From Escherichia coli O127:H6 str. E2348/69 (lineage in GTDB: Bacteria; Pseudomonadota; Gammaproteobacteria; Enterobacterales; Enterobacteriaceae): DNA of 64,000 nt. Made by a program: the position numbers. The stretch lies in assembly GCF_000026545.1 (NCBI RefSeq), contig NC_011603.1; one strand, 5' to 3'. Positions 32,401 through 35,400 of this stretch are shown here, in pieces; the stretch's first letter is position 1; each line of letters starts with the position of its first letter.

Positions 32401-35400
32401 CTTTATGTGTGGCTCGTTTTCTTGCCAGGGATGCCTGCTGACGTTCTGCAAGCGTCAGAGGATTACCTTTTCTGTATGCTCGCTTTGTACCTGATGAGGA
32501 AGTCACTGCATTTTCTGTCTGCGACATCTCGCCTCCTCAATTCTCAAACAGGGATCGTTTCGCAGAGGATACTACAGTTTTTTGAAATCAGCGACTTGAA
32601 AGTTGTGACGATGATCTGTGTTGGCGCACAAATCATGTCTGATTACGACCGTTTAATGTGATTTTGATAATGAAATGACTGAAAAGATGGAAATGCCTTA
32701 ACCTGTGTGCCGGCCCCGGGCGGGACCGGCTGTTTCTGGCATGTCGGGTGTCTGCCCCTGAAATACCTCACACTTCCGGAAAGCGGGGACTTCCGTCCCC
32801 GCCCGGCAGCTTACTTCCGTGCTTCGTAGGCCAGAGTTACCTGCACCACTGTATTTCCCCTGTGAATATTCAGCTCACATAACCGTTCCCTGAATATCAG
32901 TAAAAAACACAACACCGTGGCGCACACGGCGAGCACCCCGATAAGGGCATATTTCGTCATAAACTTTGACCTCTCTGCAAGGACTGTCTCTTATACACAA
33001 ATCCCCACCCGGGGATTTGTGATGTCTGTCAGTCTGCTTTAGGGGGACTCTTTCCATCCGGTAGTTTCCTTCCTCCCCGGCAGCGATTTTTTGAACTTTT
33101 TCCTCACCTGTTGATCTTCTCTTATATTTCATTTTCTTCGGGTCTGTTATGGTACTTTCTGATTGTTATTCATGGGCTAACGAGCAGTTTGGACATGCCC
33201 GTCTCGGTGATCCGCGTCGTACACGACGCCTTGTGTCACTGGCCTCTTCTCTCGCTCAGCATGCAGGTCTTTCTATTGTGAAATCATCCCAGTCCACTGC
33301 TCAGGTTGAAGGTGCGTACCGCCTGATACGTAACCCGTCTGTGTCCCCGCAAGCCATTGCCGAAGCCGGATTTACCGCCACTGTAAGGGCATGTGAGGCT
33401 CATCCGCTGCTCCTCGCGCTGGAAGACACCACCACCATTAACTTCAGTCACAGTACGGCATCTGATGACCTGGGGAATACCACCACTAACCCGAAGACGC
33501 GCGGGCTGCTGGCTCACTCTGTCCTGATGTACGCCCCCGACAGCGCCCTGCCAGTCGGTCTTATCGAACAGCAGCGCTGGAGTCGTGCCACGGACACCTA
33601 CGGTGTTAAGCACCAGCGAAAAGAACGTCCCTATGAAGAAAAAGAAAGTTACCGCTGGCAGCAGGCTTCGGAGCGCATGGCCGAACGGCTGGGGGAGATA
33701 CAGAAACGGGTAATCACTGTCTGTGACCGGGAAGCGGATATCTGGCATTACCTGCATTATAAAGTCAGCCACGGGCAGCGCTTCGTGGTGCGTGCAGCAC
33801 AGAATCGCCGGCTGGAAGAAGCACCCGGCAAGCTCTTCGAACTGCCGGAAGTCCTGGCAACCGCGGGAAGCCACACGCTGAATGTGATGCAAAAAGGCGG
33901 GCGGGCAGCCCGCCAGGCCCGGATGTTCATCAGTTACAGCGAAGTCAGCATAAAAAATCCCGACAACAGCGGCCAGGCGCTCCCGCTCACGTATGTCTGT
34001 TGCCGGGAGCAGGCAGAGGACGGCGCCTGCTGGCATCTGCTGACGTCAGAAAAAGTGGCGAGTGCCGCCGATGCGCGACGTATCGTCAGCCATTACGAGC
34101 GACGCTGGCTGATAGAGGAATACCACAAGGCGTGGAAAAGTGGTGGTACATGTGTGGAATCGCTGCGAATGCAGACCCGGGATAACCTCGAGCGCATGGT
34201 GGTTATCAAGGCGTTTATCGCGGTGCGGGTGCTGGGCCTGCGGCAGGGCGGTATCAGTGAAGAAACACAAAATGACAGCTGTGAGAAAATACTGACGCCG
34301 ACAGAGTGGAAACTGCTGTGGGTTAAGCTGGAAGGAAAACCGCTTCCGTCACAGATGCCGACACTGAAATGGGCCTGTCTGAAACTGGCGAAACTGGGGC
34401 GATGGCATGACAGCAAACGCACCGGTCGCCCCGGTTGGGTAGTCATGTGGGATGGCTGGTTCAGACTTCAGGATATGGTTGAGGGTTACCTGGTGATGAA
34501 GTCTCTTGATCAGGAGATCTGATCAAGAGACAGGTCATACAGAGGGCGCTTTTATTATTCTGCCAGGATCGCCCGCAGCTCATCCTTGATCCGGTTCTGT
34601 CTGCGCACCTTTTCCAAGCGCGCCTGCGCATACTGTTCTTCTTCCTGTGTGATATGTTCTGTCACATAGCCTTCTGTATCATAGCGGCAGGCACCGGCTT
34701 TCATGGCGCCAAGATAGCTTTCTGAACGGGTGATGGCCTTCAGTGCCCTGCGCAGTTTTTTATGAGAGAGCGGGATATTCCGCTGAGACACCTCATCCAG
34801 TAAAACTTCCCGGATACCACAGGCAAGAAGCCGGGGCGTGTTACCGTCAAACAATCCCGGCCACCAGGGTTTCAGAGTGTTCACCGCCTCATCCAGTGAG
34901 GGCAGCGTCAGATAAATGGACAGCGCCTGTCTGGCCTGTGCTTTCTTCGCCGCCAGCTCTGCTTCCCGGGCAGCCTTCTCCGCCAGTTTCTGCTTTTTCA
35001 CCTTCCATTTTGGTGGCGTGGTGACATTGATGATGGTTTTCCGGCTCCGGGTCGGTGTTTCCCCTTCCGTTTTCCGTTTCAGTGTCAGTACCGGTCGTTT
35101 CTGCTCTGTCATGATTGCCCTGACCTTTGTGAAAATATGTCCTCCAGGTCGTTGAAACTACTCACTATGATATTAAGCTGACCTCAACGACCTCTGACAT
35201 ATTAATACCGACAATTAAAGATGTTTTTTAAACCATTGCGTCTGTACTGCCGCCACACGTTCAAAAAACGCGCCTTCATAAATATCATAATGGCATGCGT
35301 CAGCTTCCTCGTATAATTCCTTAGTACCAGAAGCAACAGCATCATATAAGGCTCTTCCCTGTTCTGGTGGATTAACACTATCCTGGCCGGCAATAACAAC

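Follow-up and report, generated by a model that had tools for sequence, protein, structure and literature searches.

An intact SrnB-type toxin gene lies beside an ISEc13 element

We analyzed a 64-kb stretch of DNA from E. coli E2348/69, referred to below as the window. Its minus strand carries an intact ORF of 49 amino acids (MTKYALIGVLAVCATVLCFLLIFRERLCELNIHRGNTVVQVTLAYEARK; 32811..32960), a srnB toxin of the Hok/Gef family. A reading made earlier from the sequence only had proposed a Hok/Gef protein of the SrnB type at this place, and profile searches agree: Pfam HOK_GEF (PF01848) matches residues 4-45 over the entire model (1-42/42) with E=6e-8 and 32.6 bits. Scores with the narrower NCBIfam models NF007279 (Hok subfamily, 32.3 bits, cut-off 73) and NF007290 (HokA, 30.9 bits, cut-off 89) are below the cut-offs and the ORF lies outside these models, so that membership at the family level rests on Pfam. 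A hydrophobic N-terminal stretch, ALIGVLAVCATVLCFLLIF, followed by RERLCEL can be read directly from the sequence. L30, C31 and E32 belong to the residues listed as conserved in Hok R1 (bioRxiv 10.1101/2025.08.07.668861), and the ORF combines the L-C-E motif with a size of about 50 aa and a putative N-terminal hydrophobic helix. Two of its 49 residues differ from residues 20-68 of Swiss-Prot SrnB (SRNB_ECOLI, 68 aa). The toxin of the R1 hok/sok system (parB) belongs to the same Pfam family, with ~41% protein identity to Hok R1. In UniRef, the allele of the window goes by the name 'SrnB' in its 68-aa form, and public sources (RefSeq) list the exact 49-aa protein as 'Hok/Gef family protein'.

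Intact srnB loci in many plasmids share the stretch 32983..32530 (454 bp) at 100% identity, and the toxin ORF is therefore not a chance feature. We used L002, an IS-less plasmid relative with a 100% identical toxin ORF DNA, as coordinate reference for the intact srnB locus. As in IS-less IncF relatives, the locus has finO on one side and the RepFIIA/FIC copB-repA genes on the other. A tblastn search with the toxin as query found no second toxin copy in the 64-kb window.

Upstream of the toxin gene lies ISEc13 (RefSeq name), an IS4-family element of the IS50/Tn5 type that occupies 1550 bp on the plus strand (32984..34533). The relationship to IS50 had been suspected before, and it is borne out by the 457-aa transposase (33149..34522, +), which is directed away from the toxin gene, matches Tn5 transposase structures over residues 6-453 (E~6e-84) and scores 514 bits with the NCBIfam IS4 family transposase model (cut-off 160). 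The element has an OE-type end (CTGTCTCTTATACACAAAT; 32984..33002), an IE-type end (AGATCTGATCAAGAGACAG; 34515..34533) and perfect terminal inverted repeats of 9 bp (CTGTCTCTT, 32984..32992, and AAGAGACAG, 34525..34533). A perfect 11-bp hairpin (32996..33021) is located upstream of the transposase start. A second copy on pMAR7 is 100% identical over 1550 bp and is flanked by an 8-bp target duplication (GACGCAAC), and the E2348/69 chromosome contains 29 matching places with the same transposase protein accession.

The terminus of ISEc13, ...TATAAGAGACAG, finishes at 32984. As the identical terminus joins unrelated DNA beside kduD in the E2348/69 chromosome and on plasmid p2350-1, the IS boundary is fixed. 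Many BLAST matches overran the IS end by 4-17 nt, and we considered a wrong boundary for this reason; upon inspection the overruns turned out to be chance similarity of the flanks. Hence 23 nt (32961..32983) separate the toxin ATG from the IS, the distance that the sequence-only reading had given.

The locus retains a short leader remnant and the 3' part of the toxin mRNA

By alignment, window position 32983 equals L002 4001, which places the breakpoint at L002 4000/4001 and identifies the 23 nt as a remnant of the native leader (minus strand). This remnant includes a Shine-Dalgarno-like AGAGG (32970..32974, -) at 9-nt spacing from the toxin start. On the opposite strand it carries TTGACC (32966..32971, +), which the promoter scan of the intact locus identifies as the -35 hexamer of an antisense promoter of the srnC/Sok type and which is orphaned in the window. 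The in-frame codons upstream of the ATG read ...LAERSKF, in agreement with the sequence-only reading. This frame runs into the left end of the IS and is open for only 10 codons, being closed by a TAA (32991..32993) in the IS terminal repeat, and it contains no alternative start codon between the toxin ATG and this TAA.

The 3' side is better preserved. A hairpin directly after the toxin stop codon (GCGGGGAC GGAA GTCCCCGC; 32783..32802, -) and the terminal 3' hairpin of the toxin mRNA (GCCGGTCCC GCCC GGGGCCGGC; 32709..32730, -) are paired in every predicted fold. Between them lies a fold-back element, fbi-like (CAGACACCC; 32746..32754, -), which is recognizable from the fold of the intact mRNA and has lost its 5' partner GGGUGUCUG. 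That toxin ORF, Shine-Dalgarno-like sequence and 3' stem-loop were kept had been recognized before. The extent of 32783-32984 then given to the feature is right at the IS boundary and too short at the other end, as the 3' part of the toxin mRNA reaches ~32709.

Promoter, leader and antisense gene are missing

The intact locus shows what has been lost. In L002, a promoter-like site for the srnB mRNA is found at 3844..3871 and the leader starts near 3878; the Rfam sok model matches at full length (3878..4034, 99 bits). The promoter scan detects the antisense promoter TTGACC-18-TACAAT (10/12) at 4018..3989. Folding of the intact mRNA (3878..4282) predicts a duplex of nt 1-9 and nt 353-361, with P(unpaired) of 0.00-0.01.

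According to the alignment, the window has no counterpart of the locus upstream of L002 4001. Lost with the leader are the promoter of the srnB mRNA, the element at the 5' end of this mRNA that pairs with its 3' end, the in-frame start further upstream (the equivalent of mok) and the antisense -10 box. The breakpoint falls in the spacer of the antisense promoter, so that the -35 is kept and the -10 TACAAT is gone. It also cuts the in-frame extension of the 68-aa SrnB form after codon 12 (MKYLNTTDCSLF / LAERSKF...), thereby removing the start codon that corresponds to mok; the upstream ATG (L002 3967) is within the deleted part. The orphaned fold-back element is mostly unpaired in the predicted fold of the window remnant, with P(unpaired) of 0.61-0.66.

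Of the 157 positions of the Rfam sok model, 123 are missing from the window locus, and the model gave no match at E<=1 between 30000 and 36000. Over the whole 64-kb window, Rfam searches at the gathering score returned CopA, AS-traI and AS-traG and no sok. The earlier proposal that promoter, leader and srnC/Sok-like region are missing thus holds for the locus and for the remainder of the window. The leading region of pMAR7 beside the second ISEc13 copy likewise contained neither a sok match nor a Hok-like ORF.

ISEc13 replaces 2.3 kb between finO and the srnB leader

The loss of the leader had been ascribed to insertion of the IS. The IS is indeed involved, but a plain insertion does not account for the arrangement, since 2282 bp are replaced without target duplication. 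Window position 34534 equals L002 1718 and 32983 equals L002 4001, the interval being occupied by the 1550-bp IS, and the 9-bp flanks of the IS differ (CTGCAAGGA versus GTCATACAG). The deletion of 2282 bp begins at the hairpin directly behind finO and ends midway through the srnB leader. At the finO side, gccctctgtatgac is followed by agagggc in L002 and by ctgtctctt in the window. Comparison with L002 further shows that the 5' half of the post-finO hairpin, GCCCTCTG plus TATGAC, is still present (34534..34547, -) and that its 3' arm is deleted.

The replacement of 2282 bp together with the missing target duplication indicates an insertion of ISEc13 that was followed by an adjacent deletion. 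The missing duplication marks this later deletion and leaves the identification as an IS untouched. We propose that ISEc13 transposed into the 9-bp target TCCTTGCAG, located 23 nt ahead of the toxin ATG, and that a second event at the inside-end side of the IS then removed ~2.3 kb up to the post-finO hairpin, either by IS-mediated adjacent deletion or by recombination with a second IS copy. We also considered, and rejected, that an inversion involving both inverted ISEc13 copies had relocated the 2282 bp. The deleted segment was not found in the first 100,000 of the 101,558 bp of pMAR7, and the 8-bp duplication of the second copy itself speaks against such an inversion.

The window DNA matches pMAR7 over 6 kb at 100% identity. 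It is likewise 100% identical to pMAR2 of E. coli E2348/69, which has the same junction. Among 72,556 plasmids the finO-IS junction occurs only in pMAR2/pMAR7, as expected of a later, lineage-specific deletion.

The toxin gene is most likely silent

Between 32500 and 34800, no sigma-70-like promoter passed the standard scan on either strand. We rejected a strong promoter reading outward from the IS end because candidates appeared at relaxed stringency only and were weak (33150..33121, 9/12; 33114..33086, 8/12). Inside the IS, four terminator-like sites are present on the strand of finO read-through. In the predicted fold of the remnant alone, Shine-Dalgarno sequence and AUG are still paired with the 3' coding region as in the native mRNA. 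Longer leaders derived from the IS change the predicted folds, and with the 5' end at 33050 the AUG reaches a P(unpaired) of 0.83. An ORF of 85 codons (33132..32875, -) begins in the IS and crosses the toxin Shine-Dalgarno sequence and start in another frame.

In R1 hok, single substitutions in the promoter or in nt 4-6 of the tac-stem (5') abolish toxicity, and single substitutions in the mok Shine-Dalgarno sequence or the mok start codon, or mok stops upstream of hok, have the same effect (PMC9841398). Translation of mok up to the hok Shine-Dalgarno sequence is mandatory in R1 (PMC9841398), with which a review agrees (PMC4147584). As the elements lost from the window include ones whose single mutation kills R1 hok toxicity, we read the locus as a disarmed relic. 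Applying the leader-ORF requirement of R1 hok to the srnB remnant by analogy, we infer that function has been lost: the toxin ORF is intact, yet without a dedicated promoter or a translational-coupling partner, and the toxin is probably silent or close to silent in transcription and translation. The sequence-only reading had offered silencing or read-out from the IS. Silencing appears to be the better supported of the two, as a good outward promoter is lacking and the coupling element is gone.

The main competitor is low and unregulated expression of the toxin, which we consider unlikely. Transcripts would come from a weak promoter in the IS outside end or from finO/tra read-through, would be translated from the toxin's own Shine-Dalgarno sequence and would meet no antisense RNA; the low toxin level would be tolerated or used by the cell, e.g. 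in membrane depolarisation or persistence. ORF and Shine-Dalgarno sequence are intact, the two weak candidates point outward and outward transcription from the ends of Tn5 and Tn10 has been reported. The IS cuts the post-finO hairpin, whose destruction makes some read-through into the IS plausible, the AUG is exposed in some of the folds predicted for an IS-derived leader, and the 85-codon ORF might in principle replace the lost leader ORF. Even weak expression could matter in view of the high toxicity of SrnB, whose CDS resisted cloning in unmutated form under an arabinose promoter (bioRxiv 10.1101/2025.08.07.668861). The same result cuts the other way, because a toxin that is uncloneable even under a repressed promoter suggests that uncontrolled expression would be selected against. 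Moreover, the candidates lack key consensus positions and fail the standard scan, the terminator-like sites lie on the read-through strand, and toxin translation in R1 hok fails without translation of the leader ORF. Finally, the toxin ORF has decayed in a sister lineage (JBTZOT010000002), where it carries the premature stop Q39*.

An ISEc13-type element occupies the same site in a second plasmid lineage

In LR890578 (E. coli MSB1_5C) we found a plain ISEc13-type insertion with a 9-bp duplication (TTCTTGCAG) and with the leader kept beyond the IS. Orientation, 9-bp target and the 23 nt up to the toxin ATG are those of the window, while the IS is 98% identical and the flank 96.7% identical. JBTZOT010000002, a relative of LR890578, has the same junction and target, and its IS is cut by an IS66-family element. 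This junction is found in only four records among 72,556 plasmids and 5,426 E. coli genomes.

These records bear on a reading centred on the IS, in which the junction serves the element: the -35 of a strong constitutive antisense promoter would form, together with TCTTAT, a hybrid promoter that raises transposase, and the srnB leader would be a preferred target. We regard this as very improbable. On the transposase strand, TTGACC and the TCTTAT of the IS end are indeed 17 nt apart (32966..32994), but TCTTAT has no A at position 2, where a -10 box requires one, and the site is rejected by the standard scan. The perfect 11-bp hairpin lies between the site and the transposase start, and IS50 blocks translation of read-in transcripts, which also counts against a hybrid promoter. 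A preferred target is suggested by a second lineage that has an ISEc13-family element at exactly this 9-bp target, with an IS differing by 2-3% and flanks differing by ~3.5%, and by the finding that every IS-bearing allele has an IS-less allele as closest relative; the 29 ISEc13 matches in the chromosome fit an IS-centred view as well. Against it stand the rarity of the junction and the presence of only two haplotypes with the shared site, which could also go back to a common origin and later recombination.

The 9-bp site T(C/T)CTTGCAG in the spacer of the antisense promoter, 23 nt before the toxin start, may be a hot spot for transposition of the ISEc13 family. The junction itself might be functional as well, with the -35 feeding transcription into the transposase gene or the IS ORF replacing the leader ORF and permitting some toxin synthesis at a low level; this broader idea is a long shot.

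An assembly or cloning artefact of one record is hardly conceivable, as no supporting point was found, both junctions are identical in the separately deposited pMAR7 (NC_010862.1) and pMAR2 (NZ_CP059841.1), and the outside-end junction recurs in two further unrelated assemblies.

Discussion

We conclude, with a probability of roughly 75%, that the locus is a disarmed remnant of a srnB-srnC type I toxin-antitoxin module on pMAR2/pMAR7, the adherence-factor virulence plasmid of EPEC, and that it is silent or nearly so. It resembles srnB-srnC of plasmid F in its toxin, 3' hairpins and fold-back element, but is devoid of promoter, 5' leader, upstream in-frame start, antisense gene and -10, and it cannot work as a toxin-antitoxin pair. 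The intact IS-less srnB locus, on the other hand, resembles R1 hok/sok in its sok-model leader, predicted 5'-3' pairing, upstream start and an antisense promoter that overlaps the toxin Shine-Dalgarno region. The two differ in the upstream start, which is in frame and 57 nt upstream in srnB and out of frame at 58 nt in R1, where the starts are at nt 116-118 and 174-176 (PMC9841398).

A silent relic is the most likely reading and would be an ordinary type of decay for this gene family. In K-12, IS150 and IS186 adjoin hokA, hokC and hokE, as Pedersen and Gerdes reportedly described in 1999. Chromosomal hok loci of E. coli that carry insertions or have degenerated probably no longer make either toxin or antitoxin (PMC4147584). 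The likeness to the window is that a mobile element disables the locus while the toxin ORF stays readable; the window locus differs in being plasmid-borne, in the identity of the IS (ISEc13) and in the adjacent deletion of 2.3 kb. Our searches of the pMAR7/pMAR2 toxin-antitoxin and ISEc13 literature, with PMC1594828 and PMC2612414 outside their scope, found no published account of the srnB-ISEc13 junction.

If the hot spot were real, IncF plasmids would lose srnB killing recurrently through targeted IS insertion. The insertion at this site in an unrelated plasmid lineage offers a small lead on the target choice of ISEc13 and on the shedding of killer genes; beyond annotation, the relevance of the locus is small. 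For the plasmid itself, post-segregational killing would no longer be possible at this locus and maintenance would be left to the other modules, pMAR7 also carrying ccdAB, relE/parE with phd/yefM, two vapBC pairs and parM. The RefSeq label 'Hok/Gef family protein' leads ORF-based toxin-antitoxin surveys to score pMAR2 as having a working hok-type module. In pMAR2 the regulatory two-thirds of the srnB locus are gone, and srnB should not be counted among the stability functions of the E2348/69 plasmid.

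A truncated srnB locus on the adherence-factor plasmid

Positions 30500..36500 of the window are 100% identical to pMAR7, and the whole window is collinear with this plasmid except that the Tn3/TEM-2 insertion (pMAR7 20200..25145) is missing at 20192..20199. The EPEC adherence-factor plasmid is thus present here in its natural pMAR2 form, and the first ~14 kb of the window include the bfp and per genes. Both IS junctions described here are also found in pMAR2 of E2348/69 (NZ_CP059841.1).

The sequence-only reading had described a 49-aa Hok/Gef-family ORF on the minus strand, with in-frame upstream codons that run into an IS50-like element 23 nt before the ATG. 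Both points held. The ORF (32811..32960, minus strand; MTKYALIGVLAVCATVLCFLLIFRERLCELNIHRGNTVVQVTLAYEARK) was evident from the ORF list and the sequence, matched Pfam HOK_GEF (PF01848) over the whole model (E=6e-8) and showed two differences from the 68-aa SRNB_ECOLI in the 49 shared residues. Family-level membership rests on Pfam because the narrower NCBIfam Hok and HokA models were not matched (32 bits versus cut-offs of 73 and 89). Exact-sequence look-up gave the public name 'Hok/Gef family protein' for the toxin and 'SrnB' for the 68-aa form of the window's own allele, and the assignment to SrnB rests on near-identity. Immediately 5' of the toxin the minus strand reads ...ttgtgtataagagacag/tccttgcagagaggtcaaagtttATG. 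Between the ATG and the IS terminus at 32984, 23 nt of native leader are left (32961..32983), and an SD-like AGAGG is kept nine nt 5' of the ATG. The upstream codons in the toxin frame are ...LAERSKF; the frame is stopped ten codons 5' by a TAA within the IS terminal repeat, and no alternative start codon is present in its open upstream part. The window holds no second Hok-like ORF. An 85-codon ORF (32875..33132, minus strand) begins in the outside-end region of the IS, spans the junction as well as the SD and start of the toxin in a different frame, and ends within the toxin ORF. Its layout resembles that of the lost leader ORF, and it is probably a chance ORF.

Just downstream of the srnB remnant, the replication control region of the IncFII-type replicon is intact, with the CopA antisense RNA (32050..32141, plus strand; Rfam RF00042, 102.5 bits) located between copB/repA2 (32279..32527, minus strand) and repA1.

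ISEc13 replaces 2.28 kb upstream of the toxin gene

The element occupies 32984..34533 (1550 bp, ends CTGTCTCTTATACACAAAT and AGATCTGATCAAGAGACAG) and carries a plus-strand transposase gene (33149..34522, 457 aa) directed away from the toxin gene. 'IS50-like' was a fair label because almost the entire transposase aligns with Tn5 transposase structures (E~6e-84) and the protein also matches an NCBIfam IS4-family model (514 bits), and ISEc13 is the RefSeq name of the element. Copies in unrelated surroundings, adjacent to kduD on the E2348/69 chromosome and on plasmid p2350-1, end at the same terminus and so confirm the boundary; ISEc13 matches were found in 29 places of this chromosome. Beyond the window, the leading region of pMAR7 carries a second copy (pMAR7 76514..78063; 26514..28063 of the pMAR7 segment L008) that is 100% identical, inverted and flanked by its own 8-bp duplication GACGCAAC. 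The leading region of F-like plasmids usually carries psiAB and a second hok-type (flm) locus; neither hok nor sok was detectable in the pMAR7 leading region at the second copy.

We placed the breakpoint using L002, the IS-less reference locus of Salmonella plasmid pAR-0401-2, which is 99.5-100% identical on either side of the IS. Window 36251..34534 aligned with L002 1..1718 and window 32983..31744 with L002 4001..5241. The IS therefore replaces L002 1719..4000 (2282 bp), a segment containing two small hypothetical genes, a thermonuclease-family gene and the upstream part of srnB, and the toxin-side break lies at L002 4000/4001, 23 nt upstream of the toxin ATG. The nine-base flanks of the IS are unrelated (CTGCAAGGA versus GTCATACAG), hence the IS lacks a target-site duplication here. 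The deleted 2282 bp were not found in the first 100,000 of the 101,558 bp of pMAR7. The earlier proposal that an IS insertion had cut off the toxin thus stands as to the 23-nt leader that the IS abuts, but the event amounts to an insertion plus a 2.28-kb deletion.

The other end of the IS interrupts the hairpin located just behind the finO stop codon (34534..34547). This hairpin reads gccctctg-tatga-cagagggc in the IS-less reference; of its 3' arm, only the first base remains. With the arm lost, transcription from finO/tra may continue into the IS, antisense to the transposase gene. Among 72,556 plasmids (PLSDB), no plasmid but pMAR2/pMAR7 has the finO-IS junction.

Loss of the regulatory elements of srnB

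All 157 positions of the Rfam sok model align to L002 3878..4034 (99 bits), a stretch that begins at the mRNA 5' end and reaches the toxin start. This model, RF01794 ('sok antitoxin'), aligns on the sense strand of the toxin mRNA over the whole leader to the start codon; a match indicates a hok-type leader rather than the antisense RNA strand itself. A promoter scan of L002 gave the promoter-like site TGGTCA-16-TATTAT with a TG extension on the toxin strand (3844..3871) and the strong promoter-like site TTGACC-18-TACAAT on the opposite strand (4018..3989), the position at which a Sok-type antisense promoter is expected. An ATG at L002 3967 opens the in-frame 68-aa form (MKYLNTTDCSLFLAERSKF-MTKY...). 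In the predicted fold of L002 3878..4282, nt 1-9 (GGGUGUCUG) pair with nt 353-361 (CAGACACCC) with near certainty, and such pairing of the 5' and 3' ends is typical of hok-family mRNAs.

The break falls within the spacer of the antisense promoter and also within the upstream in-frame extension. The deletion took away the mRNA promoter and 5' pairing element together with the upstream ATG, the antisense -10 box and 123 of the 157 sok model positions. The SD and the toxin ORF survive, as do the antisense -35 box (32966..32971, plus strand), the hairpin after the toxin ORF (32783..32802) and the terminal hairpin (32709..32730), in line with the claimed retention of ORF, SD-like sequence and 3' stem-loop. 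The fold-back element (32746..32754) has become partnerless, its probability of being unpaired rising from 0.00 to about 0.6 in the predicted fold. No sok match was obtained at E<=1 around the locus or at the gathering score over all 64 kb. Promoter, leader and antisense RNA region are indeed missing. In L002 the hok/sok-type architecture is complete. The window copy lacks every regulatory feature that characterises a working type I module. The orphan TTGACC lies 17 nt from a TCTTAT of the IS terminal repeat (32966..32994, plus strand) and faces the transposase gene. This combination would be a weak hybrid promoter at best since TCTTAT lacks the key A at position 2 of the -10 box.

The same insertion site in other plasmids

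The junction that joins the IS outside end to the toxin gene was present in only four records of the 72,556 plasmids and 5,426 complete E. coli genomes: pMAR7, pMAR2, LR890578 (E. coli MSB1_5C plasmid) and JBTZOT010000002. In LR890578 a 98%-identical IS, in the orientation and at the site seen in the window, is flanked by the perfect 9-bp duplication TTCTTGCAG (2522..2530 and 4080..4088 of its locus L003), and the srnB leader is intact beyond the IS. This is a plain insertion at the srnB 9-bp target, which in the window is 32975..32983 (TCCTTGCAG).

LR890578 and JBTZOT010000002 represent one lineage (99.6-99.7% identical to each other) whose divergence from the window amounts to about 3% for the IS and about 3.5% for the flank. 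IS-less plasmids match the pMAR2 flank at 100% identity, and they give a contiguous match to the reconstructed empty site of LR890578 at 99.1%. The ISEc13 copy of pMAR2 at srnB does not differ from the plasmid's second copy and encodes the transposase protein of the E2348/69 chromosomal copies. For each IS-bearing allele, the nearest relative is an IS-less one. Given these identities, two independent insertions at one 9-bp target are more parsimonious than one old event, which suggests that the target may be a hot spot for the ISEc13 family. With two haplotypes only, we regard independent same-site insertion as a lead. In JBTZOT010000002, the srnB ORF behind the same IS junction (3345..3494 of its locus L004) contains a premature stop (Q39*) and the IS is cut short by an IS66-family element, showing progressive decay of a disabled locus.

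We propose that ISEc13 first inserted at the 9-bp target in the srnB leader. In the pMAR2 lineage, a second event then removed the sequence from the IS inside end up to the hairpin after finO, by IS-mediated adjacent deletion or by recombination with a second, directly repeated copy. The restriction of the finO-IS junction to pMAR2/pMAR7 fits a later, lineage-specific step. The second pMAR7 copy is ruled out as partner in the deletion because it is inverted and has its own 8-bp duplication.

Functional state of the locus

Post-segregational killing depends on two RNAs, a stable toxin mRNA transcribed from a dedicated promoter and an unstable antisense RNA. Both this promoter and the antisense RNA are gone from the window locus, and the loss of both requirements follows directly from its anatomy. 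We consider the srnB locus a disarmed, silent relic, with a probability of roughly 75%. We infer the absence of toxin synthesis from several observations. No sigma-70-like promoter passed a standard scan on either strand of 32500..34800, and the outward candidates of a relaxed scan were weak. Four terminator-like hairpins lie within the IS on the strand that would carry finO read-through. When the remnant alone is folded, SD and AUG are predicted to remain base-paired with the 3' end of the coding sequence, as they are in the native mRNA. Moreover, all parts matching the toxicity-critical elements of R1 hok are deleted: in a saturating suppressor screen, toxicity was abolished by single changes in the promoter or in nt 4-6 of the 5' stem, and likewise by changes to the SD or start codon of the leader ORF mok or by mok stops upstream of hok (PMC9841398). 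Translation of mok as far as the hok SD is described as mandatory (PMC9841398; review PMC4147584).

The coupling rule was shown for hok and not for srnB, however, and the two loci differ in layout: mok is out of frame with hok in R1, but in srnB the toxin shares its frame with the upstream ATG. Toxin ORF and SD are intact, and some of the folds predicted with longer leaders from the IS leave the AUG accessible. Any product may matter: SrnB from F lyses cells on induction (PMC12390103), and it is so toxic that attempts to clone its coding sequence under an arabinose promoter gave no unmutated clone (bioRxiv 10.1101/2025.08.07.668861). Given the weak promoters, the terminators and the deleted elements, we nonetheless think it unlikely that the toxin is made at a low, unregulated level. 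Of the two outcomes that the sequence-only reading had left side by side, silencing or expression by read-out from the IS, silencing is favoured. The premature stop in JBTZOT010000002 and the other modules on the plasmid (ccdAB, relE/parE-phd/yefM, two vapBC pairs and parM) fit a silent relic.

Discussion

Pedersen and Gerdes reportedly described in 1999 that chromosomal hok loci are disabled by insertions or decay. Such disabling is already recognised for chromosomal copies (PMC4147584), and the srnB-ISEc13 case adds a further instance of this known kind, on a plasmid that has been sequenced and annotated. A literature search with partial coverage of key papers found no published description of the srnB-ISEc13 junction. 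The initial observation is confirmed and its interpretation supported with refinements, the 3' elements extending to 32709. The finding represents ordinary biology in a known plasmid and raises a minor question on the target-site preference of ISEc13.
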